A stretch of DNA of 64,000 bases from Escherichia coli 042. GTDB lineage: Bacteria > Pseudomonadota > Gammaproteobacteria > Enterobacterales > Enterobacteriaceae. Below, piece after piece: positions 1,043 to 21,868 of this stretch (the first letter of the stretch is position 1; each line of letters opens with the position of its first letter). The notes under the pieces are model-generated. The model made no database searches. It saw nothing but the letters and a program-made list of their open reading frames with translations, and was not told where the DNA came from. The position numbers and the translations under genes were made by a program. The stretch lies in NCBI RefSeq assembly GCF_000027125.1, contig NC_017626.1; one strand, given 5' to 3'.

Positions 1043-1690
1043 GCGGATGTATTGCCCCAGTTCACGCTGTTCGGCGCGCGGCAGATAAGGCAGTTCACCA
1101 ATGAGCGGTGCCGGAAGTTTTTTACCCAGCACATCAATGATTTCCGCATAATGCGCCAGTCCTGGATTGATTCGGTTAGCCACCCAGCCAATGAGCGGCA
1201 GCCCGTCGTTGGCAATCGCCTGAGCTGTTAGTAGTGCATGGTTAATGCAACCTTCCTGAATACCGACAACCATCAATACCGGCAGTTGTTCCTGCACCAC
1301 CCATTCAGAGAGTGGACGCAAATCATTCATCAGACTGCGCCAGCCGCCAGTCCCTTCTACCACGACATGATCGACTTTTTCGGTCAGGTTTGCCAGGCCG
1401 TTTGAAATGAGGGTGTAATTGATTGGGCAACTGTGCGCCACGCTACTTTCTTCTTCGCTTAACGCGATAGGATTAACTGCTTCATAAGGCAGTTCGATGG
1501 TTGAAACACTCTGCAACACCAGGGCATCTTTATTACGCAGCCCTTCGGGTGTCTCTTTGCTCCCCTTCGCTACGGGTTTATATCCCGCAACCGTTTTTCC
1601 CTGGGAGGCTAACGCTTGTAGCAATGCGCGGGAAACCACCGTTTTCCCTACAGAAGTGTCTGTACCGGTAATAAAGAAACGCTTCAGCAT
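995..1690 (-). CDS. bioD2: dethiobiotin synthetase paralog
   Basis: ORF 995..1702; P-loop GTDTSVGKT; K-12 YnfK starts MLKRFF (internal Met, so start set to 1690). Confidence 0.85.
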
Positions 1691-1814
1691 CACTAACTCC
1701 ACCGTTATGCTTCACAAATATAAACTAGGAAAATAATTAACTTTGAAAGTCTAAGTTATGCTTTCCTGGCCCAAATTGAGATAGCGCAAATTTTGGTAGA
1801 ACAGTTAAAAAATG

Positions 1815-5423: not shown

Positions 5424-5846
5424 AAAATAAGTCCGGACTGCGGTAAATACCCATCCGGACTTATTGCCTGCTCAAACCAACGTTAATAGCCATCCTAAAA
5501 TAGACGAAGCGCCAGCCAATTCCCGCAGCGCATCTAGCGTCATCAGGATTATAAGTACCCAAATAAACGGATTCATTTTGCTGTGTGTCATTTATTACTG
5601 ATGCGCAGTTATTCTACCGCTTTGTAAGTAGTAAAATAGTTAACCTGATCAAGACTACTATTATTGGTAGCTAAATTTCCCTTAAGTCACAATACGTTAT
5701 TATCAACGCTGTAATTTATTCAGCGTTTGTACATATCGTTACACGCTGAAACCAACCACTCACGGAAGTCTGCCATTCCCAGGGATATAGTTATTTCAAC
5801 GGCCCCGCAGTGGGGTTAAATGAAAAAACAAATTGAGGGTATGACA

Positions 5847-6155
5847 ATGAAAAAAGTATTAGCTCTGGTTGTTGCCGCTGCTATGGGTCTGTCTTCTGCT
5901 GCCTTTGCTGCAGAGACTGCGACCACACCTGCTCCGACTGCGACGACCACCAAAGCAGCGCCGGCGAAAACCACACATCATAAAAAACAGCATAAAGCAG
6001 CACCTGCCCAGAAAGCGCAGGCGGCTAAAAAGCATCATAAAAATGCCAAAGCTGAACAGAAAGCTCCTGAACAAAAAGCGCAGGCAGCGAAGAAACACGC
6101 CAAGAAACACAGCCATCAGCAACCGGCAAAACCTGCTGCACAACCCGCAGCGTAA
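5847..6155 (+). CDS. asr: acid shock protein (periplasmic, Lys/His/Ala-rich)
   Basis: ORF 5820..6155; K-12 Asr begins [21 protein letters not shown] (internal Met at 5847); signal peptide plus [12 protein letters not shown] repeats. Confidence 0.88.
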
Positions 6156-6247
6156 GTTATCAATAGTAATGCTGGCGCGCCCCCTCGCGCCTGAAAATTA
6201 CGGTGCTAAGCGGATAACGTTTAGCACCGCCTTTAGCGGAGGGTAGT

Positions 6248-6331
6248 ATGGTGGGCCGTTATCGCTTTGAGTTCATTCTTATCATCCTTATTTTATGCGC
6301 ACTGATTGCCGCCCGTTTTTATCTTTCCTGA
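6248..6331 (+). CDS. ydgU: small membrane protein YdgU (27 aa)
   Basis: Short ORF MVGRYRFEFILIILILCALIAARFYLS between asr and ydgD; matches remembered YdgU; too short for the ORF track. Confidence 0.55.
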   Translation: MVGRYRFEFILIILILCALIAARFYLS

Positions 6332-6430
6332 TCGTAGTTATCTGATTTTACTCCCACTTTCATCCCGTCCCGTCTATAGTATTTATGAGGGTTTGCTTTT
6401 AATAATCATAATTACCCACCAGAGTGTGAT

Positions 6431-7252
6431 ATGCGTACAACCATTGCTGTAGTGTTGGGTGCAATTAGTTTGACGTCTGCTTTTGTGTTTGCAGATAAAC
6501 CAGACGTTGCCAAATCGGCAAACGATGAGGTCAGCACCCTGTTTTTTGGTCATGATGATCGTGTGCCAGTGAATGACACGACCCAATCACCGTGGGATGC
6601 GGTTGGCCAACTGGAAACGGCCAGCGGCAATTTATGTACGGCGACGCTGATTGCACCCAATCTGGCATTAACGGCAGGACACTGTTTATTGACGCCGCCA
6701 AAGGGTAAAGCCGATAAAGCGGTAGCGCTGCGTTTCGTGTCAAATAAAGGTCTTTGGCGCTATGAGATCCACGACATAGAAGGCCGCGTTGATCCGACAC
6801 TGGGAAAGCGGTTAAAAGCAGATGGGGATGGCTGGATTGTACCTCCCGCAGCTGCGCCCTGGGATTTCGGTTTGATTGTGCTACGTAATCCCCCTTCTGG
6901 CATTACACCGTTGCCGTTATTTGAGGGAGATAAAGCCGCGCTTACCGCCGCATTAAAAGAGGCAGGTCGTAAAGTGACTCAGGCGGGATACCCTGAAGAT
7001 CATCTCGATACGTTGTACAGTCATCAAAACTGTGAAGTGACTGGCTGGGCGCAAACGTCGGTGATGTCGCATCAGTGCGATACCTTGCCGGGTGACAGCG
7101 GTTCGCCTCTGATGTTGCATACCGATGACGGCTGGCAATTAATTGGGGTGCAAAGTTCGGCTCCTGCCGCGAAAGATCGCTGGCGCGCCGATAACCGGGC
7201 CATTTCTGTTACCGGTTTTCGCGACAGGCTGGATCAACTGTCGCAAAAATAA
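6431..7252 (+). CDS. ydgD: secreted trypsin-like serine protease
   Basis: 273 aa, signal peptide, TAGHC and GDSGSPL catalytic motifs. Confidence 0.88.
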
Positions 7253-7257
7253 TGTTC

Positions 7258-7283
7258 AAACGCTGCCCGACAGCGCGGGCAGC
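7258..7283. terminator. hairpin between convergent ydgD and mdtI (approximate coordinates)
   Basis: cgctgcccg-acag-cgggcagcg inverted repeat. Confidence 0.5.
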
Positions 7284-7290
7284 GTGTTCA

Positions 7291-7620
7291 TCAGGCAAGT
7301 TTCACCATGATCATTCCAGCCAACAGCAAGACCAGGCCAATCCAGCCTTTACGATTTAACCGTTGACCAAACAAGATCCAACCTGCGGCTAACGTGGCGG
7401 CAATACCAAACCCGCCCCACAATGCATAAGCGACAGACAAGTCGATCCCTTTAACGGCCTGAGAAAGCGCACTAAAGGCAGCCAGCACCGCCGACAGGGA
7501 GAGCAAGCCAAATATTTTGCGACGAAAGCCGTCAGAAAATTTCAAAAAGACGTTAGCAACGATTTCCAGCACGATTGCCAATGCCAGCCAGGCGGCGTGA
7601 ACCCATTCAAACTGCGCCAT
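7291..7620 (-). CDS. mdtI: SMR-family spermidine exporter subunit
   Basis: 109 aa small multidrug resistance fold; K-12 synteny. Confidence 0.9.
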
Positions 7621-7972
7621 GGTTCACCTCCAGTTCAGGTTTACGCGCTTTACGGGTACCTGATTTGATCAATACAATCCCGGCCACCAGGGTGGTTAAC
7701 CCGGCAATTTTCATCAGCGATAAACTTTCGTCGAATAACAAAACGCTAAACAAGGTAATAAATAAAATACCGATACCTTCCCACAGCGCATAAGCCACGC
7801 CTAAGGCGATTTTTTTAACGGCGAAAGAGAGAAATATATACGACAGAGAAATCATCACCAGCATTAAAATAAAGCCGCCATTTCCCTCACTGACGCTCGC
7901 CCATTTCATGGACAGCGTACCGGTAATTTCTGTAGCAATAGCCAGGCCTAATAAAATCCAATAAATATACAT
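7607..7972 (-). CDS. mdtJ: SMR-family spermidine exporter subunit
   Basis: 121 aa; overlaps mdtI start as in K-12. Confidence 0.9.
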
Positions 7973-8383
7973 TGTCCTTCTCCTGCAAGAGAATTATTTT
8001 AATTTTCGCTTAATTCAGCGAAACCAAAGTAAAGTGGTCAAGCCCCGCGCTTAGCGCAAGCTTTGGCAGAAGAAAGGACTAAAGCGCGTTGCGCCAGTGC
8101 TGCTCACCTACGAGCAAGATAGTGGATGAGGTACGAAGATGGGTAAATGTAGAAAATAACGTCCTGAACAAATTGTCCATAATATTACAATTATCCGCAG
8201 TGTTGCTTCTCGTCATCGCGGATGATAATTGTCCTCGGTAGTTGAACACGCCTGATTTGTATCATAGCTTAAGAATTAACTCAAAATATTTTCACTTCTT
8301 TACCTGAGCGGTTTGATTTTCGTTATGATGACGGAGCGAAAAAGACATTATTATTAGCAAAGGAAGAAAAAACGGGGACAAGC

Positions 8384-8530
8384 ATGGCAAAGCCGATCAT
8401 CACGCTCAATGGCCTAAAAATCGTCATTATGTTGGGAATGCTGGTCATTATTCTCTGCGGTATCCGTTTTGCCGCCGAGATCATCGTGCCGTTTATTCTC
8501 GCATTATTTATTGCTGTTATATATAACTAA
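8384..8530 (+). pseudogene. tqsA: tqsA 5' fragment (codons 1–45) ending at the island junction
   Basis: Encodes [45 protein letters not shown] then IYN-stop from island DNA; remainder of tqsA resumes at 19546. Confidence 0.8.
8512..8520. repeat. attL core (TGCTGTTAT)
   Basis: Identical 9-mer at 19546..19554; lies at tqsA codons 44–46. Confidence 0.7.
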
Positions 8531-8591
8531 TTTCACTTAACGCATTGATTTAATTAAATGATTTGCACTACAAAAAGTGCCATAAATCGCA

Positions 8592-8650
8592 AAATGACTA
8601 CACCAGTGACTACACCGTTCGGTGCACTGTATGAAACAACGTGGAACAAA
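8592..8650. promoter_or_regulatory. arm-type repeat block (GACTACACC x2), homologous to block near attR
   Basis: atGACTACACCagtGACTACACCg plus shared flanking motifs, matching 19391..19460. Confidence 0.5.
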
Positions 8651-8929
8651 TAGACACAAGAAATATACAGGCGGGTCATCTTTCCAGGGGGAAGCGCGCT
8701 AATTCATGAGGGGCGTTAATGTTGATATGGGGATCCCCATAACGGGGCTACCGGATTTTTTTTCCGGTTAACTGTTAATCAGGCTGGTGGGCTTTACCTG
8801 TTTTGTAGGAGTGGTCATTATGACCATTCAGACAATGACCTTAATCAGAACTTTTCGCTAAAAAATGACGTTGGTCACGTCGTCCGGAAAGCACAAAATC
8901 CCGTCAATTTTTAATTAACGGTTAAACCG

Positions 8930-8990
8930 TCTTTTGTCACGGCGTGTCACTGGTTGTCACTCTCCGTCACGGTATGTCGCTACTCGTTAA
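8930..8990. repeat. helically phased TGTCAC/GTCAC array (about 5 copies)
   Basis: tgtcacggcgtgtcactggttgtcactctccgtcacggtatgtcgc, ~10–11 bp spacing; at 3' end of the leftmost island gene. Confidence 0.45.
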
Positions 8991-9268
8991 CGCCGTAACC
9001 GCTCCGGCTTCTTCCAGTGGTACGTAATTTTCTCCGTTTCCCGATACAGTGCCACGCGGCGATTGTAGGCCAGCATTTCAAGAACGCGGATCCGTATGTT
9101 GCGCATATCCACATCATTAAGCTGGATACCATCACGGCGCATCACCTCAGCAACCACACGCGCGTAATTTTCGGCGGTCACGCTGTCCGGCTGCGTGGCC
9201 TGTTCGTCATGCTGCTGGCTGATTCCGGTAACGCGGCGGATTAATCCCAGTAGTTCGGCTTCTGTCAT
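8987..9268 (-). CDS. hypothetical protein (93 aa)
   Basis: ORF 8987..9466 trimmed to Met MTEAELLG; upstream part of the track ORF is read-through of the cos repeat. Confidence 0.45.
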   Translation of the reverse strand: MTEAELLGLIRRVTGISQQHDEQATQPDSVTAENYARVVAEVMRRDGIQLNDVDMRNIRIRVLEMLAYNRRVALYRETEKITYHWKKPERLRR

Positions 9269-9301
9269 TGTGCCCCCATCGCTCTGATAGTCTGGTGTCG
9301 T

Positions 9302-9365
9302 CGGGTCCTTCCTGGAATTATGGCCCGTTACGGGGCGGCGACCTCGCGCGTTTTCACTATTTATG
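9302..9365 (+). other. lambda-type cos site, copy A (cosN GGGCGGCGACCT at 9333..9344)
   Basis: cgggtccttcc...gttacg|GGGCGGCGACCT|cgcgcgttttcactatttatgaaaattttt matches remembered lambda cosQ–cosN–left-end sequence. Confidence 0.75.
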
Positions 9366-9547
9366 AAAATTTTTCGGGATCCATGTCCGGTTTCTCTGCA
9401 AGTTAACCATATGAAAAATATAAAAACATGCTTTCCATGAACCGGACATGCGCAAAAAACAGACACTAAAACCGGACATCGAACCAGTTAACCGAAAGTG
9501 TGCACAAATCACATGCATTGCTGCGAGTGATTAACAAGTTATCGGCT

Positions 9548-9982
9548 TTACTGTTCTGTATCGGCTGATTGCTCCATGCTGGCACGGCGAACGCTTATGG
9601 CATGACGCCACCCAGCCAGAAAGCCAGCCATTTTATTTCGTGCCTTGCTCACATCTTCCGGTGAATAGCCGTAAATCTGCAAACCTTCATCAAATCGATG
9701 TTCTGTTTCTTCACTGGAGTACTCGTCACGCTCAGATGAAAGCAGCCTGGCAAACATAATTTTTTCCAGCGCACTGGTTTCTACGTGATATCTGATGGTC
9801 TCAAGACGGCTTTTACCTGAAGACCAAAGCAATGTATGCCCGATGTGATAACCGCCAGACTTTCCGCGATCCGCATTAAGATACGGCATCCCCTGTTTGG
9901 TCCATGCGCGAATAGTGGTTCTGTTAACCTTGAAATGTTCAGCTATTTCCTGCTGACTTACAAAACAAGCTTTATCAATCAT
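9548..9982 (-). CDS. Nu1-like small terminase homolog (N-terminal HTH); possible packaging-redirecting protein
   Basis: 144 aa; VSQQEIAEHFKVNRTTIRAWTKQGMP resembles lambda Nu1 VNKKQLADIFGASIRTIQNWQEQGMP; flanked by cos copies. Confidence 0.7.
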   Translation of the reverse strand: MIDKACFVSQQEIAEHFKVNRTTIRAWTKQGMPYLNADRGKSGGYHIGHTLLWSSGKSRLETIRYHVETSALEKIMFARLLSSERDEYSSEETEHRFDEGLQIYGYSPEDVSKARNKMAGFLAGWRHAISVRRASMEQSADTEQ

Positions 9983-10050
9983 AATGTTACCTTAACTGCA
10001 TGGTTAAATATTAATCAAGTGGTGGTGGTGTCACCTTCACGGAAAAACGT

Positions 10051-10114
10051 CATAAATAGCGAAAACCCGCGAGGTCGCCGCCCCGTAACGGGCCATAATT
10101 CCAGGAAGGACCCG
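10051..10114 (-). other. lambda-type cos site, copy B (cosN at 10072..10083), inverted relative to copy A
   Basis: Reverse complement is cgggtccttcctggaattatggcccgttacgGGGCGGCGACCTcgcgggttttcgctatttatg; ~90 bp upstream of the Nu1-like start. Confidence 0.75.
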
Positions 10115-10117
10115 TAA

Positions 10118-10138
10118 AAAAGCCGGATTTCTCCGGCC
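10118..10138 (-). terminator. rho-independent terminator after the 137-aa gene
   Basis: Minus strand gccggagaaatccggc followed by T-run; same hairpin recurs near 12390 and 12759. Confidence 0.6.
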
Positions 10139-10143
10139 TTGTC

Positions 10144-10557
10144 TCAGATGTTTTTCAGTATGCGATCGATGTCGCCGTCATCGCCCTGGTTTCTGCCATC
10201 GTATGCCATGCCAGCTGATACGGCTTGCGGGCTGTGCATGTCCATAAAGTTTTCAAAGGCTGCGGTAAGTTCCGGCGCAACCTTCGGACGTTCCTGCTCT
10301 ATGGTCATGCTAAGGATGCTTTTAGCCGTACCAACATCGATACAAGGCACGTTTGCCATTGCACGCAACAGCGGCTGATAGTCTTTATGCTCATGAAGCG
10401 CCATAATCGCATCAGCGCGCGGCTTGTCCTGCTCTTCCAGTTTGTTTAGTTGATGTACGGCCTCATAGGTTGATAAACCTCTGTCAGCCATTGCCCGCGC
10501 TTCGACTTTAAATTTACTCGCCAGCGGTAGCGTCATGATGCTTTCATTCGTTGCCAT
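10144..10557 (-). CDS. hypothetical protein (137 aa), last gene of capsid operon
   Basis: ORF; tightly packed after the gpD-like gene. Confidence 0.5.
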   Translation of the reverse strand: MATNESIMTLPLASKFKVEARAMADRGLSTYEAVHQLNKLEEQDKPRADAIMALHEHKDYQPLLRAMANVPCIDVGTAKSILSMTIEQERPKVAPELTAAFENFMDMHSPQAVSAGMAYDGRNQGDDGDIDRILKNI

Positions 10558-10569
10558 CGTTCCCCCTGC

Positions 10570-10905
10570 TTATCGGGCCAGCGGCTGAACGGATACGCCG
10601 GAACCCGCAAAGGCGGCGCATTTTTTCGCATCGGTGTCGACGCTCTCAGGCCAGTTAACGGCGGCAATATTGAATATCCCCGTCTTGTAACACTGTGCTG
10701 ATTTCTGCTTTGACGTGTCCACAGGGTACGAGGTCAGATAAACAGCCTTGCCAGATTCCTGACCATCCCACGGCTTAAACTCGCCATTGTCTGCCAGCAT
10801 CAGCGGGGTAAATTCCTGAATAACGCCAGCATCAGCGGCAAAATGTACCAACGTCGTGGATACCTGCTGACTGCCTGCAAATAACTCAATGTATGGAGTG
10901 TCCAT
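10570..10905 (-). CDS. head decoration protein, lambda gpD-like
   Basis: 111 aa; TPLMLADNGEFKPWDG...KTGIFNIAAVNWPESVDTDAKKCAAFAGSGVSVQ parallels lambda gpD (110 aa). Confidence 0.72.
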   Translation of the reverse strand: MDTPYIELFAGSQQVSTTLVHFAADAGVIQEFTPLMLADNGEFKPWDGQESGKAVYLTSYPVDTSKQKSAQCYKTGIFNIAAVNWPESVDTDAKKCAAFAGSGVSVQPLAR

Positions 10906-10917
10906 AGAATCCCCCCG

Positions 10918-11973
10918 TTAACCAATTTTGACGGTAACAAATTTGCGAATATCTGCCGGTACCGGCTGCGGTGCACTGTGTGTCTGCACGTACTCAATCG
11001 CCGGATCGCCGTCCTCAATCCAGTTTTTCGGGTAAAACATGTTTTGTGTTGCGCCCGTTCTTACCGCTTCCTGATCCATTATCGCACCATAGGCCACCAG
11101 CCCTTTATTGTTGGTGTTACCCAGGACCAGCAAATCAGGCTCAAGGAAATATTTTTCGGTACCATCGCTGTCAGTGTATTTGCCGGAATAGACGATAAGG
11201 GCCAGATCACCAAGATAGCCTTTAAAGCTCACCACTTCGCCCAGGTTTTTACAGGCCAGTTCGGCGGCGGATTCTGAACCACGGGAAAGATCGTACAGCT
11301 CACGGAATTTTTTAAAGCTGCGTAATGTGCGCCATACCTCAGCGCCCATAATCATGACGTTTGCGGGGCAACCAGCCTGATCAGCATAAAGCTCGATGTC
11401 ATAGATTGGGTCGTGCATGTCTTTATCCTGCTCGGACCATTTTTTACCCTTGGCCTGCTCTATGATGCAGTTTTCCGGTATTTTCCAGTCGATTTCATAG
11501 CGTTCTATGCCTTCGCCCTCAATGATGTTTTTTCCGGTCGTTACCGCATTCACCGCCAGCCATTCCACGCGTGCCTTAATGGCGTTTATCTGGCGGCGCA
11601 TGTTGCCAGTAATCAGGCGCATACGGCGATAGGTAGGGTCGTTAAGCTGTGCCGGATCTTCTCCAGCCATGCGCATGATGGTTTTCGTTGGATCGATTTC
11701 GTGCTTTGGCTTCATGTAGCCAGGTTTGATTGTGCTGGTTTCGTACCCTTTATCGCGCTGAACCTGGCTACCCACCATAGGCGAACAAAACGCCGACATG
11801 GTGACTTCTTCAATGTCCAGGGTATCCAGCATGATGTTTTGCGTGCTGAATGTCGCCACGTTCGGGAAAAACAGCGTGGTAAACAGAGGGCTGAATTTAA
11901 AATCCGCAATATCCCCGCGATTCAGGTACATGAAAAGCTGGTTAGTGTTAAGTGCCGTTGCTTTGCCTGCCAT
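10918..11973 (-). CDS. major capsid protein, lambda gpE family
   Basis: 351 aa (lambda gpE is 341 aa); adjacent to gpD-like gene. Confidence 0.75.
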   Translation of the reverse strand: MAGKATALNTNQLFMYLNRGDIADFKFSPLFTTLFFPNVATFSTQNIMLDTLDIEEVTMSAFCSPMVGSQVQRDKGYETSTIKPGYMKPKHEIDPTKTIMRMAGEDPAQLNDPTYRRMRLITGNMRRQINAIKARVEWLAVNAVTTGKNIIEGEGIERYEIDWKIPENCIIEQAKGKKWSEQDKDMHDPIYDIELYADQAGCPANVMIMGAEVWRTLRSFKKFRELYDLSRGSESAAELACKNLGEVVSFKGYLGDLALIVYSGKYTDSDGTEKYFLEPDLLVLGNTNNKGLVAYGAIMDQEAVRTGATQNMFYPKNWIEDGDPAIEYVQTHSAPQPVPADIRKFVTVKIG

Positions 11974-12212
11974 TATTCACCCCCATAATTTTTATGCATC
12001 CCAAGCGCCGCAAGTAAATAAGAGCGTACAAGTGAACCTATCGACGGCTCCGGCGTCATCAGCGGATCCAGTCCAGCCGCAACGCCAGCTTCATAGTTTT
12101 TTTTGTGGCGCTGCTTGAGCACCTCCACGATTTCGGGGCTTATGTACACCGAAACACCGCCTTTTTTCTCTTCAGCCATAGTAAGAAATTCCTCTTCGAC
12201 TAAAAAAATCAT
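11973..12212 (-). CDS. hypothetical protein (79 aa, or 68 aa from internal Met), first gene of capsid operon
   Basis: ORF; stop overlaps capsid start (ATGA). Confidence 0.45.
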   Translation of the reverse strand: MIFLVEEEFLTMAEEKKGGVSVYISPEIVEVLKQRHKKNYEAGVAAGLDPLMTPEPSIGSLVRSYLLAALGMHKNYGGE

Positions 12213-12235
12213 AACTGGATGTTTATCCAGTTATG
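12208..12235. promoter_or_regulatory. 12-bp inverted repeat (tcataactggat-gttt-atccagttatga) overlapping capsid-operon start codon
   Basis: Perfect 12-bp arms with 4-bp spacer; AT-rich region with further palindrome ttgcattttatgcaa just upstream. Confidence 0.5.
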
Positions 12236-12344
12236 ATTATAATCAGAATTGCATTTTATGCAATGATATTGAGTTATGTTGCAAATTATGAAATGATTAT
12301 CCCGATCACGAACGCCAGTGCATCCAAAAACCTCATATGCAAAA

Positions 12345-12410
12345 GCCCGATAAGAACCCTCTGACCTTATCGGGCTTTTTTTGGGCGCAAAAAAGCCGGA
12401 TTGCTCCGGC
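12345..12410. terminator. tandem hairpins (bidirectional terminator region, approximate)
   Basis: gcccgataag...cttatcgggc + T7, then aaaaaagccggattgctccggc. Confidence 0.55.
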
Positions 12411-12430
12411 TATGTGTGCTGTGTGCTGGC

Positions 12431-12655
12431 TCAGTCTCTGATCTCTTTCAGAAATTCTATCAATGCATCTATCTGTTCAGGATTTACCGCCAGCATTTCA
12501 CCGGATAGAGCACATCTCACAAAACCATGCTGATCCTTTTCAATCAGTGCGCCCGTCTCCAGGAATGCGCGGTAATCATTGATGCTCATCGTCTCCATGT
12601 TGTCAGCATGGTATTTATCACGCTGTTTTAATATCTCATCAAATTTCATCGGCAT
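12431..12655 (-). CDS. hypothetical protein (74 aa)
   Basis: ORF followed by terminator hairpin. Confidence 0.45.
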   Translation of the reverse strand: MPMKFDEILKQRDKYHADNMETMSINDYRAFLETGALIEKDQHGFVRCALSGEMLAVNPEQIDALIEFLKEIRD

Positions 12656-12758
12656 TGTTTTTTTCCTCTGTTGTGTCTGTTTGTTTCAGATAGTAACTAT
12701 GCCTGACCGTGACGAAAACCCGGTAATGCGCCATACCGTTTCAACTGGTGCAAAAAAA

Positions 12759-12774
12759 GCCGGATTTCTCCGGC
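12759..12774 (-). terminator. rho-independent terminator after PerC-like gene
   Basis: aaaaaaagccggatttctccggc. Confidence 0.6.
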
Positions 12775-12781
12775 TGTTTGA

Positions 12782-13054
12782 TTAGCTGTCCTGGTAATTG
12801 CGCCATATTTCATCACCAGCACCATCTATACCCATTTCGGCATAAGTGCGATCGACTGCCTTTTTCAGGTCTCCGAAATTATCCGGCGGCTCCGGTGCCC
12901 TCTGTGCCTTCCTTGAACATTCCAGCCGTCGCATCGTGATGTGATGCCGTTCCTTGTCTGTCTCCACCAGCTGCATGACTTCACCCCATCGCGCCGCCGC
13001 CCTCCGGTAAAAGCCTTTCGCCTCCAGTTCCTCCGCTATGCGGTCATGTACCAT
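12782..13054 (-). CDS. PerC-family transcriptional regulator-like protein
   Basis: ORF 12782..13174 trimmed to Met MVHDRIAEELEAKGFYRRAAARWGEVM, which resembles the PerC/Pch motif LExxGxWRRAAxRW. Confidence 0.55.
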   Translation of the reverse strand: MVHDRIAEELEAKGFYRRAAARWGEVMQLVETDKERHHITMRRLECSRKAQRAPEPPDNFGDLKKAVDRTYAEMGIDGAGDEIWRNYQDS

Positions 13055-13064
13055 CGTCACCCCC

Positions 13065-13475
13065 TCAGAACGAAATATCATCACCGTAAGGGTCATCGCC
13101 TCCCGCTGGTGGCTGATTACCCTGTGTGCCTGTGGTTTTGCGTCTGTTCCCGCCTGGACGTGCCGCGCGGGCACTGATTACGCTGTCTGCGATAACCTGC
13201 CAGCCCTGCCGCGTTTCTCCGTTCTGTCCGGTCCACTGGCTTACCTGCATCGTGCCGGATACGCTGGCAACATCGCCTTTTTGATGTTTAGCCAGGAAGT
13301 CGGCCTGTTTGCCAAATGCGATGACCGATAACCATAACGTCGCCTGTCCGTCCTGTGCCTGGCTGCATGGCAAAGATACCGCCATACGCGCCAGCGTCAT
13401 CGGTGTGCCCTTGCTGGTCTGTTTTACCTGCGGGTCGTCCACCAGCCGCCCGTAAGCGGCTATCTGTGCCGTCAT
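13065..13475 (-). CDS. ssb: single-stranded DNA-binding protein
   Basis: 136 aa; OB-fold segments parallel E. coli SSB; Gly/Pro-rich tail ending DDPYGDDISF (compare DFDDDIPF). Confidence 0.8.
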   Translation of the reverse strand: MTAQIAAYGRLVDDPQVKQTSKGTPMTLARMAVSLPCSQAQDGQATLWLSVIAFGKQADFLAKHQKGDVASVSGTMQVSQWTGQNGETRQGWQVIADSVISARAARPGGNRRKTTGTQGNQPPAGGDDPYGDDISF

Positions 13476-13753
13476 AATTCCACCTCTCCGGTTTTAACGT
13501 TGATGGTTGTTACCTGTTCCGCTTCGGCAATCTCCCGTTCTGTCAGCGTGGCAAAGTTTGCCGCCGCCGTGGTCATGAATGCGCTTATCAGGTCGGGATG
13601 TTCCTTCGCGTATCCTTCCCGCGTGTGGCGGTCTATCGTTCTGATTGCCACCTTTAAGGTGTGCTCAGTCATGTCTAACGCTTTATATTTTGGCTCTGTT
13701 CTGTCTCTGCGTTTTTGGGTCATTTCTCGCAACCTCTCACTTTTTCGCCTCAC
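13472..13753 (-). CDS. hypothetical protein (93 aa)
   Basis: ORF overlapping ssb start by 4 nt; 5' end overlaps iteron region. Confidence 0.4.
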   Translation of the reverse strand: MRRKSERLREMTQKRRDRTEPKYKALDMTEHTLKVAIRTIDRHTREGYAKEHPDLISAFMTTAAANFATLTEREIAEAEQVTTINVKTGEVEL

Positions 13754-13925
13754 TTTTTCAAGCGTCTCACTTCGTCGCAGTTGGGATTTTCGGTTTTTCT
13801 ATGTGTGTGTTTCATAAGTATTTTTTTACCCCTCACTTTTGAGGATGTATACAGGTCGAAAAGTGAGGGAGAGCGGGCTAATTTTGGCCCTCTTTCTATC
13901 CCCCTCGCTTTTGCTCCTCACTTTT
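13733..13925. repeat. candidate replication origin: CCTCACTTTT iterons (about 6 direct, 1 inverted) with AT-rich spacer
   Basis: Iterons at about 13733, 13748, 13764, 13829, 13859 (inverted), 13901, 13916; directly 3' of the replication ATPase gene. Confidence 0.6.
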
Positions 13926-15324
13926 ATAGCGGCGCTACATCATCCCCATCGATACGAATAACCCCATCTTTTTCCAGCTTGTACAGCCAGCGCCGGAAGT
14001 TTTTCATTTCATACCCCAGCTTTTTCATGTCATCACGTAACAGCGGGATCGTGCACTTGTCGCCGTTCTGTGTGCGTGAACGGATGCACCCCCATAGCGC
14101 GGTATGGTTTTCCGTCTTGTTCCCTGCCTCCTCGATGCGCTCCAGTTCAACAGGAGGGCGCGGATCATCCACCACCACCAGCGACGTGATTAATTCACCG
14201 TCAGCGTCGGTAAAAAGCTCCACCACGCGTAAGTCATATGCGGCTTCTTTGAGTTCCTCCGCGTCCTTCATTTTGGTGCATGAGATAACCAGCGCTTCGC
14301 TTCCTGCGTCCTCCCTGCGTATCCGGTATTCAGCATCCAGCGAAGCACGAAATGCACTGGAACCGCGCGCGCCTTTCGTCTCATCCTTGCCGGAATGGTG
14401 AACCACCAGCACCGTGGCCCCTGTGCGTCGTTTCAGTTCGTCACAACCACGGATAAACGCCCCCATATCACGGGAATCATTTTCATCATTCCCACCAAAG
14501 CAACGCGCCAGCGTATCCAGAATAATCATGCGTACAGGTTTACCCGTTTCCCGCTCCACCTGACGGGCAGCGATAACCATTTCATCAACATCAAGCGGGG
14601 CAGCCGGAAAGATGGGGCGGTTTACCAGATACAGATTTTTCACCTGCTCATCGTGCACAACCTCCCAGGCTTTTACACGACGCGGAACACCTATACCGCC
14701 TTCACCAACCACATAGAGAACCGCACCATGTGCAACCCTGCGGCCTCCCCACTGGCGACCAGTGGCAACATGGCACGCCCACGATCCAGCAAGGAATGAT
14801 TTATAGGACCCGCTAGCCCCGTATATGCTGCATAGCGATACCGCCGGAATAATCCCCTTAACCACGTAATCCAGTTGCGTGTCGTATCCGGTAGATCCAA
14901 CGCTCATCGGTAGCGTGGTTTTTCGCTGGTGTTTTTTTTCTTCCGCCGGCTCTTTCCCGCGCACCCGTTCCAGGTATTCGCGCCAGTTCTCCCGCATATG
15001 GCTGTGCATCCCTTCGGGGTAATAATTCGCATCAGTTACACCCGCCGCCGCCAGCTTGTGCGCAATGGCATTAATATTTGATGGCCTGATGTGGCCTGCC
15101 TTGTACAGCCGGACACAATAGCGCCCCTCGTCGATGATTCTCAGGTCTGCCAGTTCATCCAGTTGATCATCAGCCAGCACAACGGGAGGCACATTATCGC
15201 CAGCCAGTCGCCCGTCCTGTTCCTGCCACTGTTTCGCATGTGCCCAGGCATCACTACCCGCAAAAATAATGACTTCGGTCATCTTGTCGTAAGGCTGTTT
15301 TTTTAAGTTCGGTGCGCTTTTCAT
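13924..15324 (-). CDS. replication protein, RecA-fold ATPase / helicase-like (primase-replicase candidate)
   Basis: 466 aa; Walker A GASGSYKS, Walker B MIILDTLARCFGG, VLVVHHSGK motif typical of phage/plasmid RepA or DnaB-like ATPases. Confidence 0.75.
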   Translation of the reverse strand: MKSAPNLKKQPYDKMTEVIIFAGSDAWAHAKQWQEQDGRLAGDNVPPVVLADDQLDELADLRIIDEGRYCVRLYKAGHIRPSNINAIAHKLAAAGVTDANYYPEGMHSHMRENWREYLERVRGKEPAEEKKHQRKTTLPMSVGSTGYDTQLDYVVKGIIPAVSLCSIYGASGSYKSFLAGSWACHVATGRQWGGRRVAHGAVLYVVGEGGIGVPRRVKAWEVVHDEQVKNLYLVNRPIFPAAPLDVDEMVIAARQVERETGKPVRMIILDTLARCFGGNDENDSRDMGAFIRGCDELKRRTGATVLVVHHSGKDETKGARGSSAFRASLDAEYRIRREDAGSEALVISCTKMKDAEELKEAAYDLRVVELFTDADGELITSLVVVDDPRPPVELERIEEAGNKTENHTALWGCIRSRTQNGDKCTIPLLRDDMKKLGYEMKNFRRWLYKLEKDGVIRIDGDDVAPL

Positions 15325-15620
15325 TTCTTGCCCCTGAATCCGTTAACCATGGTTTTCAGCTTCTGGATGTTTGCCCGTGCCCTGGCGTTGCTGGTGGGCA
15401 CGTTATGCGGCGCGGTCTGTACCAGAGAAAAATCACGCCGGAACTGATAAACAGGCATCACGCAATCATATTCGTAACCTTCACGGCGGTAGGTTACGCG
15501 CCGTTCTTCCACGTCCTTAATCATTACCGTGCCGCCGTACTGGTCGCGGTAAATATCACCGCGCGTAAATTTAGGGTGAGTGTTGCCACTGGCAGTTAAG
15601 CCAGAATATTTAAGTTTCAT
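15321..15620 (-). CDS. hypothetical protein (99 aa)
   Basis: ORF overlapping rep start by 4 nt. Confidence 0.45.
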   Translation of the reverse strand: MKLKYSGLTASGNTHPKFTRGDIYRDQYGGTVMIKDVEERRVTYRREGYEYDCVMPVYQFRRDFSLVQTAPHNVPTSNARARANIQKLKTMVNGFRGKK

Positions 15621-15625
15621 TATTT

Positions 15626-15859
15626 TTATTCTCCGGTGTGCTGTTCTTTATATCTGTCGTGCAATAGATCTATTTCTTGCAGTTCCATTATTACAGGCTC
15701 AAGAAGCGTTATTAATGCTGTGGCAATTCTTGATTTTTGTTTGTCGCGTTCATTGTCGCCAAGTGTTTCAAGCCATATGCGCAATATTTCCATCATGTTT
15801 TCACTGTGAGAAAGTGCAAGAAATGCGCGGTCTATTGTTTGGTGGTAAATATCACGCAT
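15626..15859 (-). CDS. hypothetical protein (77 aa)
   Basis: ORF in operon context. Confidence 0.4.
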   Translation of the reverse strand: MRDIYHQTIDRAFLALSHSENMMEILRIWLETLGDNERDKQKSRIATALITLLEPVIMELQEIDLLHDRYKEQHTGE

Positions 15860-16319
15860 GGCTTACATCCTCAGGAAATTTTCTTCTATAACGCGCCTCT
15901 GCCACATATTCCGCATAATCGGCGGCGATATTCAGTACATCAAGCCCCGTTGATTTATATTCTCTCGTGGAAAGTAAGAAAAAAGCCGCTCTAATAAGTT
16001 CTGGCATTGACGAAAGCGCATCAGCCGCATCATCAGGAACGCCGGAAAATTCCTGTTTCAGGGAATTAAAACGATCATCACGCATAACCCCCCCCCCATT
16101 TTCACAATCAGCAATCAGGATAGCTTTGGCCTCATTCAGCGCCGTATCAGCACTAAATTGCATGACAGCCAGTGAGTGAGGAACGAAAGCACCGGCATAT
16201 TCTGTTTCGCTGGTGGCGTGCTTATGTGCCCTGTCCGCGATAACAGAAATATCAATCAGCGCGTGCATCAGCGTTTTGATGGCTTCGGCGGCTGCGTCCG
16301 GTGTGGTTTTATTGTGCAT
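15852..16319 (-). CDS. hypothetical protein (155 aa) containing a G10 homopolymer
   Basis: ORF; codons GGG-GGG-GGG at 16088..16097. Confidence 0.45.
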   Translation of the reverse strand: MHNKTTPDAAAEAIKTLMHALIDISVIADRAHKHATSETEYAGAFVPHSLAVMQFSADTALNEAKAILIADCENGGGVMRDDRFNSLKQEFSGVPDDAADALSSMPELIRAAFFLLSTREYKSTGLDVLNIAADYAEYVAEARYRRKFPEDVSHA

Positions 16320-16521
16320 AAAGCATCCCCTGAATATTCGTGTTAATCATTCCGGCACGTTTTGTGATTTCCTGTAATGATTCCCTTGTGGCGACAATTG
16401 CTTCATCTGGTAAGTGGTAATTACACACCACGCGACCTTTATCCACATTGACCAGTAGCTGCCCTGTGAATTTCTCACGAAACTGAATGCGGTTAAGGTC
16501 AGTAAGTGACAGATTAATCAT
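16309..16521 (-). CDS. hypothetical protein (about 70 aa from internal Met MINLSL)
   Basis: ORF 16309..16563 starts at GTG; ATG at 16521 is the likelier start. Confidence 0.4.
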   Translation of the reverse strand: MINLSLTDLNRIQFREKFTGQLLVNVDKGRVVCNYHLPDEAIVATRESLQEITKRAGMINTNIQGMLYAQ

Positions 16522-16711
16522 GGCGCACCTCCTGACGAATACGGGCGGCAAATACAGCAACACAACCGGACGGGCAACGGTTACGCGCTTCGCGTTCCGT
16601 CCAGGCGGTTACGTGGATGATTTGAGATTCTCCGGCACTCAGTGCCAGAAAACGCCACACAAAGGCCGTTTGTGTGTGTACAAGGTGTGGTATATGATTT
16701 ACAGCAACCAT
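16514..16711 (-). CDS. hypothetical small protein (about 65 aa), first gene leftward of regulatory region
   Basis: ORF 16514..16786 trimmed to Met MVAVNH. Confidence 0.3.
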   Translation of the reverse strand: MVAVNHIPHLVHTQTAFVWRFLALSAGESQIIHVTAWTEREARNRCPSGCVAVFAARIRQEVRHD

Positions 16712-16803
16712 AACGGCTCCTAGTTTACGTTGTTGGTTAGAAGCCCTGCGAGTGGTAACGACACTTGCGGGGCTTTGTCTTTTCATCGATTACCTTGATA
16801 AAG

Positions 16804-16884
16804 GTGTCAGCCACTATATTAGTAACGGGTGTCAGCCACGTCAATAGTGTTTTTCCGTTTTCTTGTGTGTATACTGTCAGCCAC
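16804..16884. promoter_or_regulatory. divergent regulatory region with three direct repeats GTCAGCCAC
   Basis: Repeats at 16806..16814, 16831..16839, 16876..16884; tatact box and aggaaa RBS precede the plus-strand small gene. Confidence 0.6.
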
Positions 16885-16905
16885 CTAATAACGAGGAAAT
16901 CAGAT

Positions 16906-17085
16906 ATGGCAACAAAAGCAGTTAATGCAAAATCCAAAAAGCTTGAGGCTCGAGTACCACACGCAATAGCTGATGCTGTAGAAAATTTAAAGGAAGATGG
17001 CGAAAGTACAGGGCAATTTATCGTTTCGGCACTTGAAGGCGAGATCAAACGCCGCCAGCGCCGCAAGGCCAAAGAATCAGAATAA
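16906..17085 (+). CDS. small ribbon-helix-helix-like DNA-binding protein (59 aa), candidate island regulator
   Basis: KKLEARVPHAIADAVENLKEDGESTGQFIVSALEGEI resembles Arc/CopG RHH; transcribed divergently from the leftward gene block. Confidence 0.5.
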   Translation: MATKAVNAKSKKLEARVPHAIADAVENLKEDGESTGQFIVSALEGEIKRRQRRKAKESE

Positions 17086-17127
17086 TCACTATCAGCGCCG
17101 TGGTGTGAGGTATTACGGCGCATTGCT

Positions 17128-17316
17128 ATGCAGGACAACACAATGACCGATAAAGAATTGACCAAAACATTATCACCGGCACGGAAAAGACGGCGCAGAA
17201 AGATAGAGCATGAATCAGAAAGATTCGCACCATGTGCTTTTGCCCTTGAGCAATTCCTTAAAGAGTACAGGGAAAAGCGCTCATTGCAGGTATGGCAACG
17301 AACTGAACCAGACTGA
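17128..17316 (+). CDS. hypothetical basic small protein (62 aa)
   Basis: ORF downstream of RHH gene; Arg/Lys-rich. Confidence 0.35.
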   Translation: MQDNTMTDKELTKTLSPARKRRRRKIEHESERFAPCAFALEQFLKEYREKRSLQVWQRTEPD

Positions 17317-17394
17317 TTGCATTGCCCACCAGCCTGATAGCGGCTATCATCCCCGTGCTTATGTTTGGGATCACACACACAAACGGCGCAGCGG

Positions 17395-17430
17395 GTTATC
17401 TGTTCAGAAAGGCGGCTCCATTTCGGGGCC
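17395..17430 (+). terminator. candidate terminator of the plus-strand pair (approximate)
   Basis: ggcggctccatttcggggccgc followed by tttttta. Confidence 0.45.
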
Positions 17431-17585
17431 GCTTTTTTTATACCTGAAAAACCCCAATTTTGTTGTTTTTCAGTTTCACCAGGGCGAACGAATCCCCGCC
17501 CACGTTCTGGCGTATATTCAATCTTCATGGTTATAGCTCTGTGTTCAGATGATTGATGTGTGGCGGCTGCGTGCCGCCAGCGTGA

Positions 17586-17774
17586 TTAATGAACTGCCTT
17601 GCAGCTATCCTTCCAGGCCAGAACCTCGGATAAAGACCAGCCAACGGAACGACCGCCAAGTTTACGACGTGATGGGAATTGTCCGGCCTTTTCCAGGCGG
17701 TAGCGACACGTACGGCTAAGGCCGGTTAGTTTTTCGCATTCTTTTTCACGTATAAACCGATCAGTGCTTAACAC
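17586..17774 (-). CDS. alpA: AlpA-family phage transcriptional regulator / excisionase-like
   Basis: 62 aa; LTGLSRTCRYRLEKAGQFPSRRKLGGRSVGWSLSEVLAW matches AlpA HTH pattern. Confidence 0.8.
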   Translation of the reverse strand: MLSTDRFIREKECEKLTGLSRTCRYRLEKAGQFPSRRKLGGRSVGWSLSEVLAWKDSCKAVH

Positions 17775-18140
17775 TATTGCCCCCCCTTTCGTTTCTTAAA
17801 GAGTCATCAGGTGTCTTATTGTGTCGTATTGTTCCCGCTAGAGTGATGAATGGCAAATATTGAGGATGTATGATTTACAGAAAATGAAACAGTAAGAATA
17901 AAATCTTTTAAATTCATGTTAATACAAAGGCATAAAATATTGTTTCATGCCTTTTTTCTCGCTCTTTAAAGAGTGATTCGCTAGTGTATAAAAAACCAGT
18001 GACACATTAAAAATCAGCCACTTATAAATCTGTATGCTTTTTCGCCTCTTGTTCGTGGTTGTTCCACATTGTTGCTCATTGTTGCACGTTGTATCTGTTC
18101 GCATATACAGTATGCGCATACTGAAAAAACACGAAAAAAA

Positions 18141-19370
18141 TTATTTTCTTCTGGCTACTGGTAGCGTGGTTACGTTTTCATGTGTTCCCGCCAGTATCCC
18201 TAACCGCTCCGTCCACATATCCAGCGCATTGCGTTTAGCATCCAGATAACGGGAATGATTATAAACTCGCTGCATTCCTGGCATCTGGTGGCCTGTAAGC
18301 TGCTCCACGACATGCGGATCAACGCCTAAATCGTTCAGCATGGTTGTAAAGGTGCGCCGGATGTCATGCAGTGACCAGTGAGGATGATTAAGCCTCCTGT
18401 GCGCTAATCTTCCATACTGCGATACGCTGGCCTCCTGTTTCACTTCCCCCAGCAATAAGCCCGTGTGCCTGTTCTGCTCCACCAGCTGCGTGACGAACGG
18501 CAGGATCGCTTCCGGTATGGGCCGGAATATTGCGACCTTCGTTTTGCTGTGCTCCTTCGGAACGGTCCATAGCATTTCCGTAAAATCCCACTCCCCGATC
18601 TCCGATAACCTCAGTTCTACCGTTCTGGCTCCGAAGACAATCAGGAGGCGGATTAACGCGACGTAGTAAGGGGAGAATATTTTTTTGTCCAGTGCCTGCA
18701 ATAATTCGCCAAGTTCTTTGTTACTTAAGACACGTTCGCTTATATCCGGTTTTTTCCCAACGTCCGCCACGTTCAGATCGTCCAGAACGTTGCTGATTGC
18801 ATAGCGCCGCCTACGGCAGAACTTAAGCGCCTGTTTGCACGCCTGTAGCACGAATCCGGCAGTAACAGGCGTTCGCTTTGCCACCTGGTCAAAACAGGCC
18901 AGCCAGTGCCGTAGCTCGCATTTATCCAGCGGCATAGCACCAATCTGCTGTATTACGTGATTATTAAGTCGCCTTTTCAGGGCGATATAATCCACGCGGT
19001 TTTCCTTTACGTAATACTCAAGCCAGTAGGTGAGCGCATCGCCAACCGTTACCGGCTTTAACGCTTCCTGTACGGTGTAATTAAGCTCATGACGTGGATT
19101 TTTCCCCTCTGCCAGCCATGCGCGACACTGGGCGGCTTTTTCCCTGGCTGATTTCAGGCTCAGATCAGGATAACTTCCCAGCTTAATGCGTTCGGGTCGT
19201 GTCTCCCTTCCCGTTCCGGCCCTGTATGTGAAATACCAGGTCAATTTCCCTGATGTTAAATATTTCACGCTCAGGTTTCCGCCATCACTATAAAACGTGT
19301 TTTTCTCCGCTGGCTTACCATGAAGTTTCCTTAGCAAGGTATCGCTCAGTTTGTTCATTGCTCTGCTCAC
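18141..19370 (-). CDS. int: tyrosine site-specific integrase (P4-like, N-terminal arm-binding domain)
   Basis: 409 aa; C-terminal HDIRRT...GHQ...VYNHSRY catalytic motifs; adjacent to attR. Confidence 0.9.
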   Translation of the reverse strand: MSRAMNKLSDTLLRKLHGKPAEKNTFYSDGGNLSVKYLTSGKLTWYFTYRAGTGRETRPERIKLGSYPDLSLKSAREKAAQCRAWLAEGKNPRHELNYTVQEALKPVTVGDALTYWLEYYVKENRVDYIALKRRLNNHVIQQIGAMPLDKCELRHWLACFDQVAKRTPVTAGFVLQACKQALKFCRRRRYAISNVLDDLNVADVGKKPDISERVLSNKELGELLQALDKKIFSPYYVALIRLLIVFGARTVELRLSEIGEWDFTEMLWTVPKEHSKTKVAIFRPIPEAILPFVTQLVEQNRHTGLLLGEVKQEASVSQYGRLAHRRLNHPHWSLHDIRRTFTTMLNDLGVDPHVVEQLTGHQMPGMQRVYNHSRYLDAKRNALDMWTERLGILAGTHENVTTLPVARRK

Positions 19371-19390
19371 GTTTTACCCCCTCTTTACGA

Positions 19391-19460
19391 AAAAGTGACT
19401 ACACCAGTGACTACACCGATCGTTGCACAAAGGGCTACAACGTGAAACAAGCTGGAACAA
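19391..19460. promoter_or_regulatory. arm-type repeat block (GACTACACC x2) between int start and attR
   Basis: gtGACTACACCagtGACTACACCg at 19397..19417, homologous to 8592..8650. Confidence 0.5.
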
Positions 19461-19545
19461 GGAAAATCACAAATCTGTTGATAATCAAAAACATAATGCA
19501 CAGCCTGAAACATTATGAAACAGCAAAAAACACCAAATGATAAAA

Positions 19546-19554
19546 TGCTGTTAT
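19546..19554. repeat. attR core (TGCTGTTAT)
   Basis: Identical to 8512..8520; in-frame stops TGA TAA immediately upstream. Confidence 0.7.
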
Positions 19555-20452
19555 TCTTAACCCGCTGGTGCAACACATGGTCCGCTGGCGAGTGCCGCGT
19601 GTACTGGCGGTGTCGATTTTGATGACCATCATCGTGATGGCGATGGTGTTGCTGTTAGCTTATCTGGGTTCCGCGCTCAACGAGTTGACGCGGACGTTAC
19701 CGCAATATCGCAACTCTATTATGACGCCGCTGCAAGCGATTGAACCGTTGTTGCAACGCGTAGGGATTGATGTCTCAGTTGACCAACTGGCGCATTACAT
19801 TGATCCGAACGCGGCGATGACGTTGCTCACCAACTTATTGACGCAGTTATCTAATGCCATGTCATCAATATTTTTATTGCTGCTGACGGTGCTGTTTATG
19901 CTGCTCGAAGTGCCACAATTGCCCGGAAAATTTCAGCAAATGATGGCGCGTCCGGTTGAAGGGATGGCGGCGATTCAGCGTGCGATTGACAGTGTTTCTC
20001 ATTATCTGGTGCTGAAAACAGCCATCAGCATCATCACCGGCCTGGTCGCCTGGGCGATGCTCGCCGCACTCGATGTTCGCTTCGCTTTTGTCTGGGGATT
20101 GCTGGCCTTTGCGCTTAATTACATCCCTAATATTGGTTCAGTTCTCGCAGCAATTCCCCCTATCGCTCAGGTACTGGTGTTTAATGGCTTCTACGAAGCG
20201 TTGTTGGTGCTGGCGGGATATCTGCTGATTAATCTGGTCTTCGGCAATATTCTGGAGCCGCGCATCATGGGACGTGGGCTGGGGCTTTCGACATTGGTGG
20301 TATTTTTGTCGTTGATTTTTTGGGGATGGTTGTTAGGACCGGTGGGTATGCTGCTTTCCGTGCCGTTGACAATTATTGTCAAAATTGCGCTTGAACAAAC
20401 AGCGGGAGGTCAAAGCATCGCCGTTCTGTTAAGCGATCTCAATAAAGAGTGA
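19546..20452 (+). pseudogene. tqsA: tqsA 3' portion (codons 44–344), separated from its start and promoter by the island
   Basis: In-frame continuation [14 protein letters not shown]...; track ORF 19568..20452 begins at an internal GTG. Confidence 0.8.
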
Positions 20453-20476
20453 CGGCCTCCGCAGAGGCCGTCAGGG

Positions 20477-21868
<1,392 letters not shown>

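Follow-up and report, generated by a model that had tools for sequence, protein, structure and literature searches.

The 64,000-nucleotide stretch of Escherichia coli 042 analyzed here (contig NC_017626.1), referred to as the window, contains a Gram-negative-type phage-inducible chromosomal island (PICI) at ~8.9-19.4 kb, which is inserted in tqsA beside pntAB. Within this island, a small + strand gene for a 59-amino-acid (aa) protein of predicted ribbon-helix-helix (RHH) fold is divergent from a − strand operon that runs from an Icd-like gene to the gene of a RepA-type helicase. The two units are separated by a gap of 194 bp, which holds three short repeats (O1, O2, and O3) and two predicted promoters. 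The elements of this module are as follows:

16804-16814, + strand: site O1, GTGTCAGCCAC, just downstream of the leftward -10 element and over the predicted start
16829-16839, + strand: site O2, GTGTCAGCCAC, filling the spacer and abutting the leftward -35 element
16874-16884, + strand: site O3, CTGTCAGCCAC, beginning in the last two bases of the rightward -10 element TATACT and covering the predicted start
16816-16844, − strand: predicted leftward sigma-70 promoter with -35 element TTGACG (16844-16839), 17-nt spacer, and -10 element TAATAT (16821-16816)
16847-16875, + strand: predicted rightward promoter of the RHH gene with -10 element TATACT (16870-16875), a weak -35 element, and a T-rich tract upstream
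16906-17085, + strand: YlcI/YnfO-family gene of the 59-aa protein, a predicted RHH repressor
16514-16711, − strand: Icd-like gene (cell-division inhibitor family; NF033153, 64.8 bits), the first gene of the leftward operon

The repeats share the exact 10-mer TGTCAGCCAC, which occurs three times on the + strand (16805-16814, 16830-16839, and 16875-16884). Start to start, the copies are 25 and 45 bp apart, and the original prediction had located and described them correctly. Copies 1 and 2 extend to GGTGTCAGCCAC. The 9-mer GTCAGCCAC has no further copy on either strand of the 64-kb window, 0.57 being expected, and at least three copies anywhere were found in 2 of 100 shuffles in which clustering within 80 bp was not demanded. 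That the repeats exceed chance is derived mainly from conservation, as 64 distinct related loci have matched sites at the same three positions. The repeats are 11-bp pseudo-palindromes of the form GTG-N5-CAC, which the earlier reading had missed, and in other classes of loci the site is a perfect palindrome (GTGTTGAACAC, GTGTCGGACAC, and CTGGATTCCAG). The shorter core TGTCAGCCA has two extra matches, at 4982 and 10482. Both lie inside coding regions, one of them a host gene, and as further sites they were rejected as probable chance matches.

The leftward promoter was called by a consensus scan. Its -35 element is kept in all site classes, as is the TA..T of the rightward -10 element. When 14 diverse class representatives are aligned, the invariant columns are the GTG..CA of O2, the adjoining TCAA of the -35 element, and the rightward TA..T. 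O3 is likely the site of autoregulation.

Among 5,426 complete E. coli genomes, 1,156 match the region at least partly, including the one with EcCICFT073, the prototype of Gram-negative PICIs, for which the same order of icd-like gene, YlcI-type gene, small open reading frame (ORF), alpA, and int is annotated. For comparison, loci were gathered from 11 annotated E. coli, one Edwardsiella, and 80 IMG/VR contigs, and removal of duplicates left the 64 distinct combinations of protein and upstream DNA. A peptide-pattern scan of genome contigs, its pattern being narrow, gave one locus, that of Edwardsiella hoshinae. Nearly all 64 show matched sites at about -102 (-100 to -112), -77, and -32 from the ylcI ATG. 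The N5 core of the sites differs among loci and defines approximately 10 classes, each of which has its own residues 11-15 in the 59-aa protein, in a one-to-one pairing:

residues KKLEA: site GTGTCAGCCAC
residues KKIDV: site GTGTCAGACAC
residues KR[FI]D[VA]: site GTGTC[GC]GACAC
residues QALKA: site GTGTGGCCCAC
residues QT[VIL]AA: site GTGTTGAACAC
residues QMTTV: site GTGTATTTCAC
residues QSVTA: site GTGTAAGACAC
residues QK[LV]QA: site GTGGAWTCCAC
residues QKMSA: site GTGGCACCCAC
residues QQLNA: site GTGAATCGCAC

Of the 3.01 bits that describe site class, residue 14 by itself accounts for 2.81 and residue 12 by itself for 2.33. Residues 11, 12, 14, and 17 are constant within each class and helix residues vary, with Arg16 being invariant throughout. 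One-residue changes track one-base changes: KKxE versus KKxD corresponds to GCCAC versus GACAC, and KK versus KR to CAG versus CGG. The window and locus L037 are old relatives of the same class. Between them, the sites are identical at 33/33 positions, whereas identity is 58% over the remainder of the 135-nt upstream region; at that rate, 33/33 identity would arise by chance with a probability of ~1.6e-8 (0.58^33, our own arithmetic). Codons 1-19 of this pair show 11 synonymous and no non-synonymous substitutions, compared with 8 and 11 in codons 20-50, and other classes show the same pattern. Since site identity and codon pattern exceed what linkage would give, the β-strand and the sites are taken to be held constant within a class and to change together between classes. 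On this comparative evidence, the co-variation of site and β-strand reflects selection beyond linkage. The Icd-like protein and the 62-aa ORF downstream of the RHH gene were also considered as site-binding partners and rejected, both being common to several site classes and showing no co-variation.

Individual islands depart from the common arrangement. In classes QMTTV and QSVTA, sites occur in both orientations inside one island. In RM9088 (L006 1576-1632), a 23-bp tandem duplication adds an operator copy, giving four sites instead of three. Class QT[VI]AA (L005, L013, L042, L045, and L062) has an extra GTGTTGAACAC site at about -62 from the ATG, which contains TTGAAC and would fit as the -35 element of the rightward promoter. 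Where O3 normally lies, members of the 94-3024 subgroup have a degenerate sequence (CTGCATTTGTT).

The 59-aa ORF is preceded by GAGGA 7 nt upstream of its ATG. Its product matches the NCBIfam entry NF041551 "YlcI/YnfO family" with 60.6 bits against a cut-off of 30 (E = 1.1e-16, residues 9-50) as well as phrog_949 (E = 3e-23). In the monomer model, the N-terminus is extended and is followed by two helices. Because folding of RHH proteins requires a dimer, two copies were modeled as a linked dimer, joined by an artificial flexible linker, with the alignment of 23 relatives treated likewise. In this model, each copy has a strand at residues 10-18 and helices at 19-28 and 35-58, all with a predicted local distance difference test score (pLDDT) of ~90. 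The topology is thus β-α-α, with the invariant turn G32-E33-S34 between the helices, and the modeled dimer is intertwined, its N-terminal strands pairing as one ribbon similar to solved RHH dimers. The plus-strand RHH-like gene put forward in the original prediction is hence a real ORF, and the structure prediction proposed there gives an RHH fold, which remains a predicted one.

Residues K12, E14, and R16 are predicted to face the DNA. The segment K12-L-E14-A-R16-V-P aligns with Q9-F-N11-L-R13-W-P of Arc. In the Arc-operator complex, Gln9, Asn11, and Arg13 contact bases, and these positions correspond to the two specificity-linked residues (12 and 14) and the invariant Arg16 of the 59-aa protein. 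The basic C-terminal tail EIKRRQRRKAKE (residues 46-57) is nearly invariant over all specificity classes, with the helices varying. It is a candidate surface for a common partner, be it a helper or a host factor, or for non-specific DNA contacts. A tblastn search of GenBank phages gave no real homologues, the sole weak match being a 16.5-kb "induced prophage" record; the subfamily therefore looks satellite-specific in that collection. The K-12 YlcI protein (DLP12, L094 4252-4446, − strand) is RHH-like in sequence (RNIRFP...GSGNFSAWVIE), and the DNA upstream of it contains CCACGTCAA and repeated GCATCTAC motifs. It was set aside as a direct comparison due to its different context, beside the lambda-type cos/nohD of the DLP12 prophage.

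Taken together, the repeats are probably the operators of the adjacent 59-aa RHH protein, which would form with them an autoregulated repressor/operator switch over the replication operon. Physical binding, repression, and relief of repression are what we infer from the comparative data. The original prediction had likened the region to a satellite master repressor/operator module. Its core is strongly supported, as co-variation and promoter overlap point to cognate operators at divergent promoters; the "master" status is deduced from the geometry, and the helper-encoded inducer that would target it is a hypothesis.

A second layer of control is suggested, in which a + strand RNA would be complementary to the Shine-Dalgarno sequence, the start codon, and the 5' untranslated region of the Icd-like gene. 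The Shine-Dalgarno sequence GGAG of that gene is the complement of 16717-16720. Two features describe the RNA:

~16705-16785, + strand: predicted antisense small RNA of ~80 nt with a 5' hairpin (~16706-16738), a terminator hairpin (16740-16776), and a U-rich tail, the 5' end being deduced
16691-16698, + strand: predicted candidate -10 element of this RNA, TATATG/TATGAT, with TGG before it

Both hairpins are conserved as structure across 18 diverse loci, with compensatory changes in 16 of 24 pairs. On the + strand, 402 of 428 pair cells can pair (59 of them G.U), compared with 346 on the − strand. The T-tract of hairpin 16740-16776 is present on the + strand only, and the earlier reading had overlooked this hairpin as part of a + strand structured RNA. 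Folding of the + strand RNA 16703-16788 yields -35.5 kcal/mol (z = -5.1), whereas its complement is unremarkable (z = -1.4). A TAnnnT hexamer is kept 10 nt upstream of the first hairpin, at constant distance, in 13 sequence variants (TATGAT, TATGCT, TATAAT, TAGACT, TACTAT, TATCAT, TACACT, and TAGTAT being its forms). As it lies within coding sequence, part of this conservation may reflect protein constraint. An Rfam scan of 5000-21000 at E <= 1 gave no family and no P4 CI, C4, or isrK-type RNA. The antisense RNA is predicted because of the two-hairpin conservation, the + strand pairing and T-tract, the fold energy, and the TAnnnT hexamer, and as a conserved element it is probably part of the module.

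The surroundings are those of a PICI: int and alpA lie at one end, the replication module is co-oriented with them, and phage-like late genes, a size in the range of ~10-15 kb, and site-specific insertion complete the picture. The minus-strand small-ORF and replication block was recognized as such from the start. It comprises the Icd-like gene and the RepA-type helicase gene, several small ORFs, SSB, and PerC. Lambda-type head, decoration, and small-terminase (TerS) genes are located at 9.5-12 kb. The remaining features are the following:

18141-19370, − strand: tyrosine integrase gene at the island end, adjoining truncated tqsA
17586-17774, − strand: alpA (excisionase/activator family), convergent with the RHH unit
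13924-15324, − strand: RepA-type helicase gene of the replication module
17128-17316, + strand: second small ORF, 62 aa (phrog_21027, function not assigned), probably co-transcribed with the RHH gene
17406-17440, + strand: strong intrinsic terminator (-21.7 kcal/mol, z = -4.75, then U7), ending the RHH-orf62 unit

The CFT073 homologue of the 62-aa ORF begins at an internal ATG, 17143. In a 99.3%-identical RefSeq genome (L001 12338-13129), a 263-aa − strand ORF (16737-17528), which overlaps both conserved small + strand genes, is annotated as hypothetical; among the other islands examined it is not annotated, apart from a similar 247-aa ORF in Sakai Sp7 (ECs_1576). Three features of the 59-aa ORF speak for the small + strand genes as the real ones, namely its family match, its ribosome-binding site, and its substitution pattern. 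The 263-aa annotation is probably a mis-call that hides the RHH gene.

In the proposed mechanism, an RHH dimer would read each 11-bp GTG-N5-CAC site via its N-terminal β-ribbon, using the variable residues 12 and 14 together with the invariant Arg16. With O1 and O2 bound, the -10 element and start as well as the spacer of the leftward promoter would be occluded, and this leftward block would keep the icd-like, small-ORF, and replication genes of the PICI off. With O3 bound, the RHH gene would limit its own promoter. The antisense RNA over the icd ribosome-binding site would probably serve as a second lock on leaky transcripts. Release may follow either of two routes. Transcripts started at the alpA promoter could extend leftward across the convergent unit as far as the operon, which would also interfere with the RHH gene, or a helper-encoded anti-repressor could inactivate the RHH protein. 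The founding PICI paper describes the global repressor of Gram-negative islands as "unclear" (PMC6092414), and the 59-aa protein is a strong candidate for it. Within the literature library that we searched on YlcI/YnfO/DUF3950, PICIs, and EcCICFT073, no paper mentions the RHH gene, the sites, or the antisense RNA in PICIs, and later genomic surveys, in which the islands are treated as essentially unidirectional, leave the divergent unit unmentioned (PMC10111431).

Several observations weigh against an RHH repressor acting at these operators. Both promoters are consensus predictions, the rightward -35 element being poor, and the spacings of 23-25, 35, and 45 bp fail to bring the sites onto a single face of the DNA, which makes cooperative binding not obvious. 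The 59-aa protein has no match in Pfam-A even at E <= 10, and thus no Pfam RHH family; a sequence search of the PDB with its profile gave no meaningful relative, and Foldseek of the monomer model against the PDB was uninformative (E > 5). The dimer was modeled with an artificial linker, and the alignment behind it is shallow (23 close relatives). The operators and the N-terminal codons are within 100 bp of each other, so that their association is partly linkage and co-inheritance alone is weak evidence. Lastly, induction of Gram-negative PICIs is described as helper-dependent AlpA expression, with no repressor invoked (PMC6092414).

In a different reading, the RHH protein binds the sites but is not the main silencer. 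Herein, the operon would be read chiefly from the alpA promoter, and the convergent unit, the bidirectional terminator, and the operators would act as an insulator or roadblock or in fine-tuning of Icd. In P4-type satellites, transcription of the left operon begins at a late promoter upstream and passes through the alpA homologue (PMC10111431), a strong terminator (17406-17440) is placed here between the RHH-orf62 unit and the convergent alpA, and AlpA overexpression alone induces EcCICFT073, starting its excision and replication (PMC6092414). The conserved -35/-10 pair that is bracketed by O1 and O2 in every class is, however, hard to explain without a promoter at this position, and we regard this reading as unlikely. 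Less probable still is that the RHH protein and the 62-aa ORF are a toxin-antitoxin-like pair, with the repeats autoregulating the pair only and having no role in the island life cycle.

That the repeats are AlpA sites, from which AlpA switches on the leftward operon, is very improbable. In its favor, binding to repeated sites is a property of AlpA-family proteins, downstream genes of EcCICFT073 are activated by AlpA (PMC6092414), and alpA is 700 bp away from the repeats. Yet AlpA is 100% identical in the window (sites GTGTCAGCCAC) and in CE10 (sites CTGGATTCCAG, TGGAWTCCA), and islands belonging to three other site classes have an AlpA with 1-4 of the 62 residues changed. Conversely, three unrelated AlpA/helix-turn-helix types occur within one site class, and RM13514 combines the sites of the window with a different AlpA. 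Finally, we give almost no credence to the repeats being iterons of the island replication origin, bound by a RepA/primase initiator: direct repeats do lie near the replication operon and PICI origins are iteron-based (PMC6092414), but published origins are located downstream of pri/rep and these repeats upstream of the operon, and the repeats number just three, all of them overlapping promoter elements. Site class and initiator type also vary independently. The same YlcI protein and site type are found in CFT073, with a replication protein of the primase family, and in RM9088, with DUF927, and the window and 94-3024 both have RepA-family helicases with different sites.

The RHH repressor/operator switch can be compared with several known systems. 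In logic, the closest ones appear to be P22 immI and CopG/RNA II plasmid control. P22 immI (Mnt and Arc, Pant/Pmnt, sar) likewise has a small RHH repressor on operators overlapping divergent promoters. The short RNA predicted here, antisense to the ribosome-binding site of the Icd-like gene as the first one under repression, would be a counterpart of the antisense RNA sar. No sequence homology to immI is detectable. Furthermore, two repressors act on one 21-bp operator in immI, compared with one repressor and three separate 11-bp elements here, and the controlled operon is that of the antirepressor instead of the icd-like and replication genes of a satellite. CopG of pMV158, an RHH protein that controls repB together with antisense RNA II, is co-transcribed with repB and has one pseudo-symmetric element, whereas the repressor described here is divergent and has three sites. 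Omega of pSM19035 (inc18) is an RHH dimer that acts on short repeats, direct or inverted and variable in number, at several promoters. The occurrence of sites in either orientation inside one island (QMTTV and QSVTA) resembles this system, but Omega sites are contiguous 7-bp heptads and the 11-bp sites here are 12-34 bp apart.

In biological role, the module may be likened to the Stl master repressor of Gram-positive PICIs. As with Stl (Rpr), a satellite repressor gene is divergent from an operon with replication functions, and in both cases the islands differ in carrying one of many sequence-specific variants. Whereas Stl is a larger protein of helix-turn-helix type whose gene has the orientation of int, the 59-aa RHH protein is encoded on the strand opposite to int and alpA. 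De-repression of Stl by a helper protein is established (PMC6092414). Satellite P4 (CI RNA, PLE/PLL, Vis) has the same broad order, with an alpA/vis homologue, an icd-containing leader, and a primase-type gene, and it exerts RNA-level control at the start of the left operon, as predicted here (PMC10111431). P4 differs in being without a protein immunity repressor, and its CI RNA is a sense-strand, trans-acting RNA as opposed to the cis-antisense RNA predicted here. The module appears to be an undescribed switch in Gram-negative phage satellites, built as a type of device that is itself already known.

The slot of the RHH gene behaves like an exchangeable, immunity-type cassette, because in Sakai Sp7 it is replaced between matching flanks and 94-3024 carries two kinds of occupant. 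In Sakai Sp7, an EcCIEDL933-type island, the icd leader with its hairpin and the 62-aa ORF share ~98-99% identity with the window, and the YlcI-type gene and the sites are replaced by an Arc-like RHH ORF of 63 aa (L095, TTG at 1833 to 2024; phrog_228, "Arc-like repressor"). Two GGTGACCAC repeats are located at 1791 and 1825 of L095, the second of which abuts a -35 element TTGACA. Strain 94-3024 has both YlcI-type and Arc-like genes. In L006, L008, and L011, the place between the YlcI-type gene and alpA that the 62-aa ORF has in the window is taken by − strand genes of the AntA/AntB antirepressor family or BRO-N type. They lie downstream of alpA and recall ant of the P22 immI region.

These observations permit a wider proposal, which we put forward tentatively and consider possible rather than probable. 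The YlcI-type RHH protein would be both the master repressor that has been missing from Gram-negative PICIs and their immunity determinant, existing in at least 10 mutually non-cross-reacting classes by virtue of two β-strand residues and acting with the cis-antisense RNA on the icd/replication operon. The helper would lift it via an anti-repressor that recognizes the tail EIKRRQRRKAKE or via AlpA-dependent read-through, and Arc-like cassettes (EcCIEDL933) would fill the slot elsewhere. The module is present in the experimental workhorse EcCICFT073, and an analogous Arc-like cassette in the EcCIEDL933 type, so that both are testable at once with existing strains and a question left open in satellite biology becomes directly accessible to experiment. 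The uncharacterized family YlcI/YnfO, DUF3950, thereby receives a concrete proposed function and a candidate recognition code, and its ~10 putatively orthogonal pairs of small repressor and operator represent a natural set. The data also point to an unannotated antisense RNA that would guard a cell-division-inhibitor gene.

Compared with strain 14EC001 (L001), the regulatory and replication half of the island in the window is 99% identical. The late regions (8.9-12 kb in the window, 330-7741 in L001) differ, the window having the lambda-type genes and that of 14EC001 encoding HK97-type capsid, protease, portal, HNH, and terminase (capsid-forming PICI type) and carrying an IS1 insertion. A perfect 15-nt inverted repeat, GCCGTTTGTGTGTGT / ACACACACAAACGGC, is present at 16665-16679 and 17373-17387, 693 nt apart. 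Its arms, one of them inside the icd-like coding sequence, enclose both small + strand genes together with the operators and the candidate promoter of the antisense RNA, and it may represent either an inverted fragment of icd or a boundary at which cassettes are exchanged.

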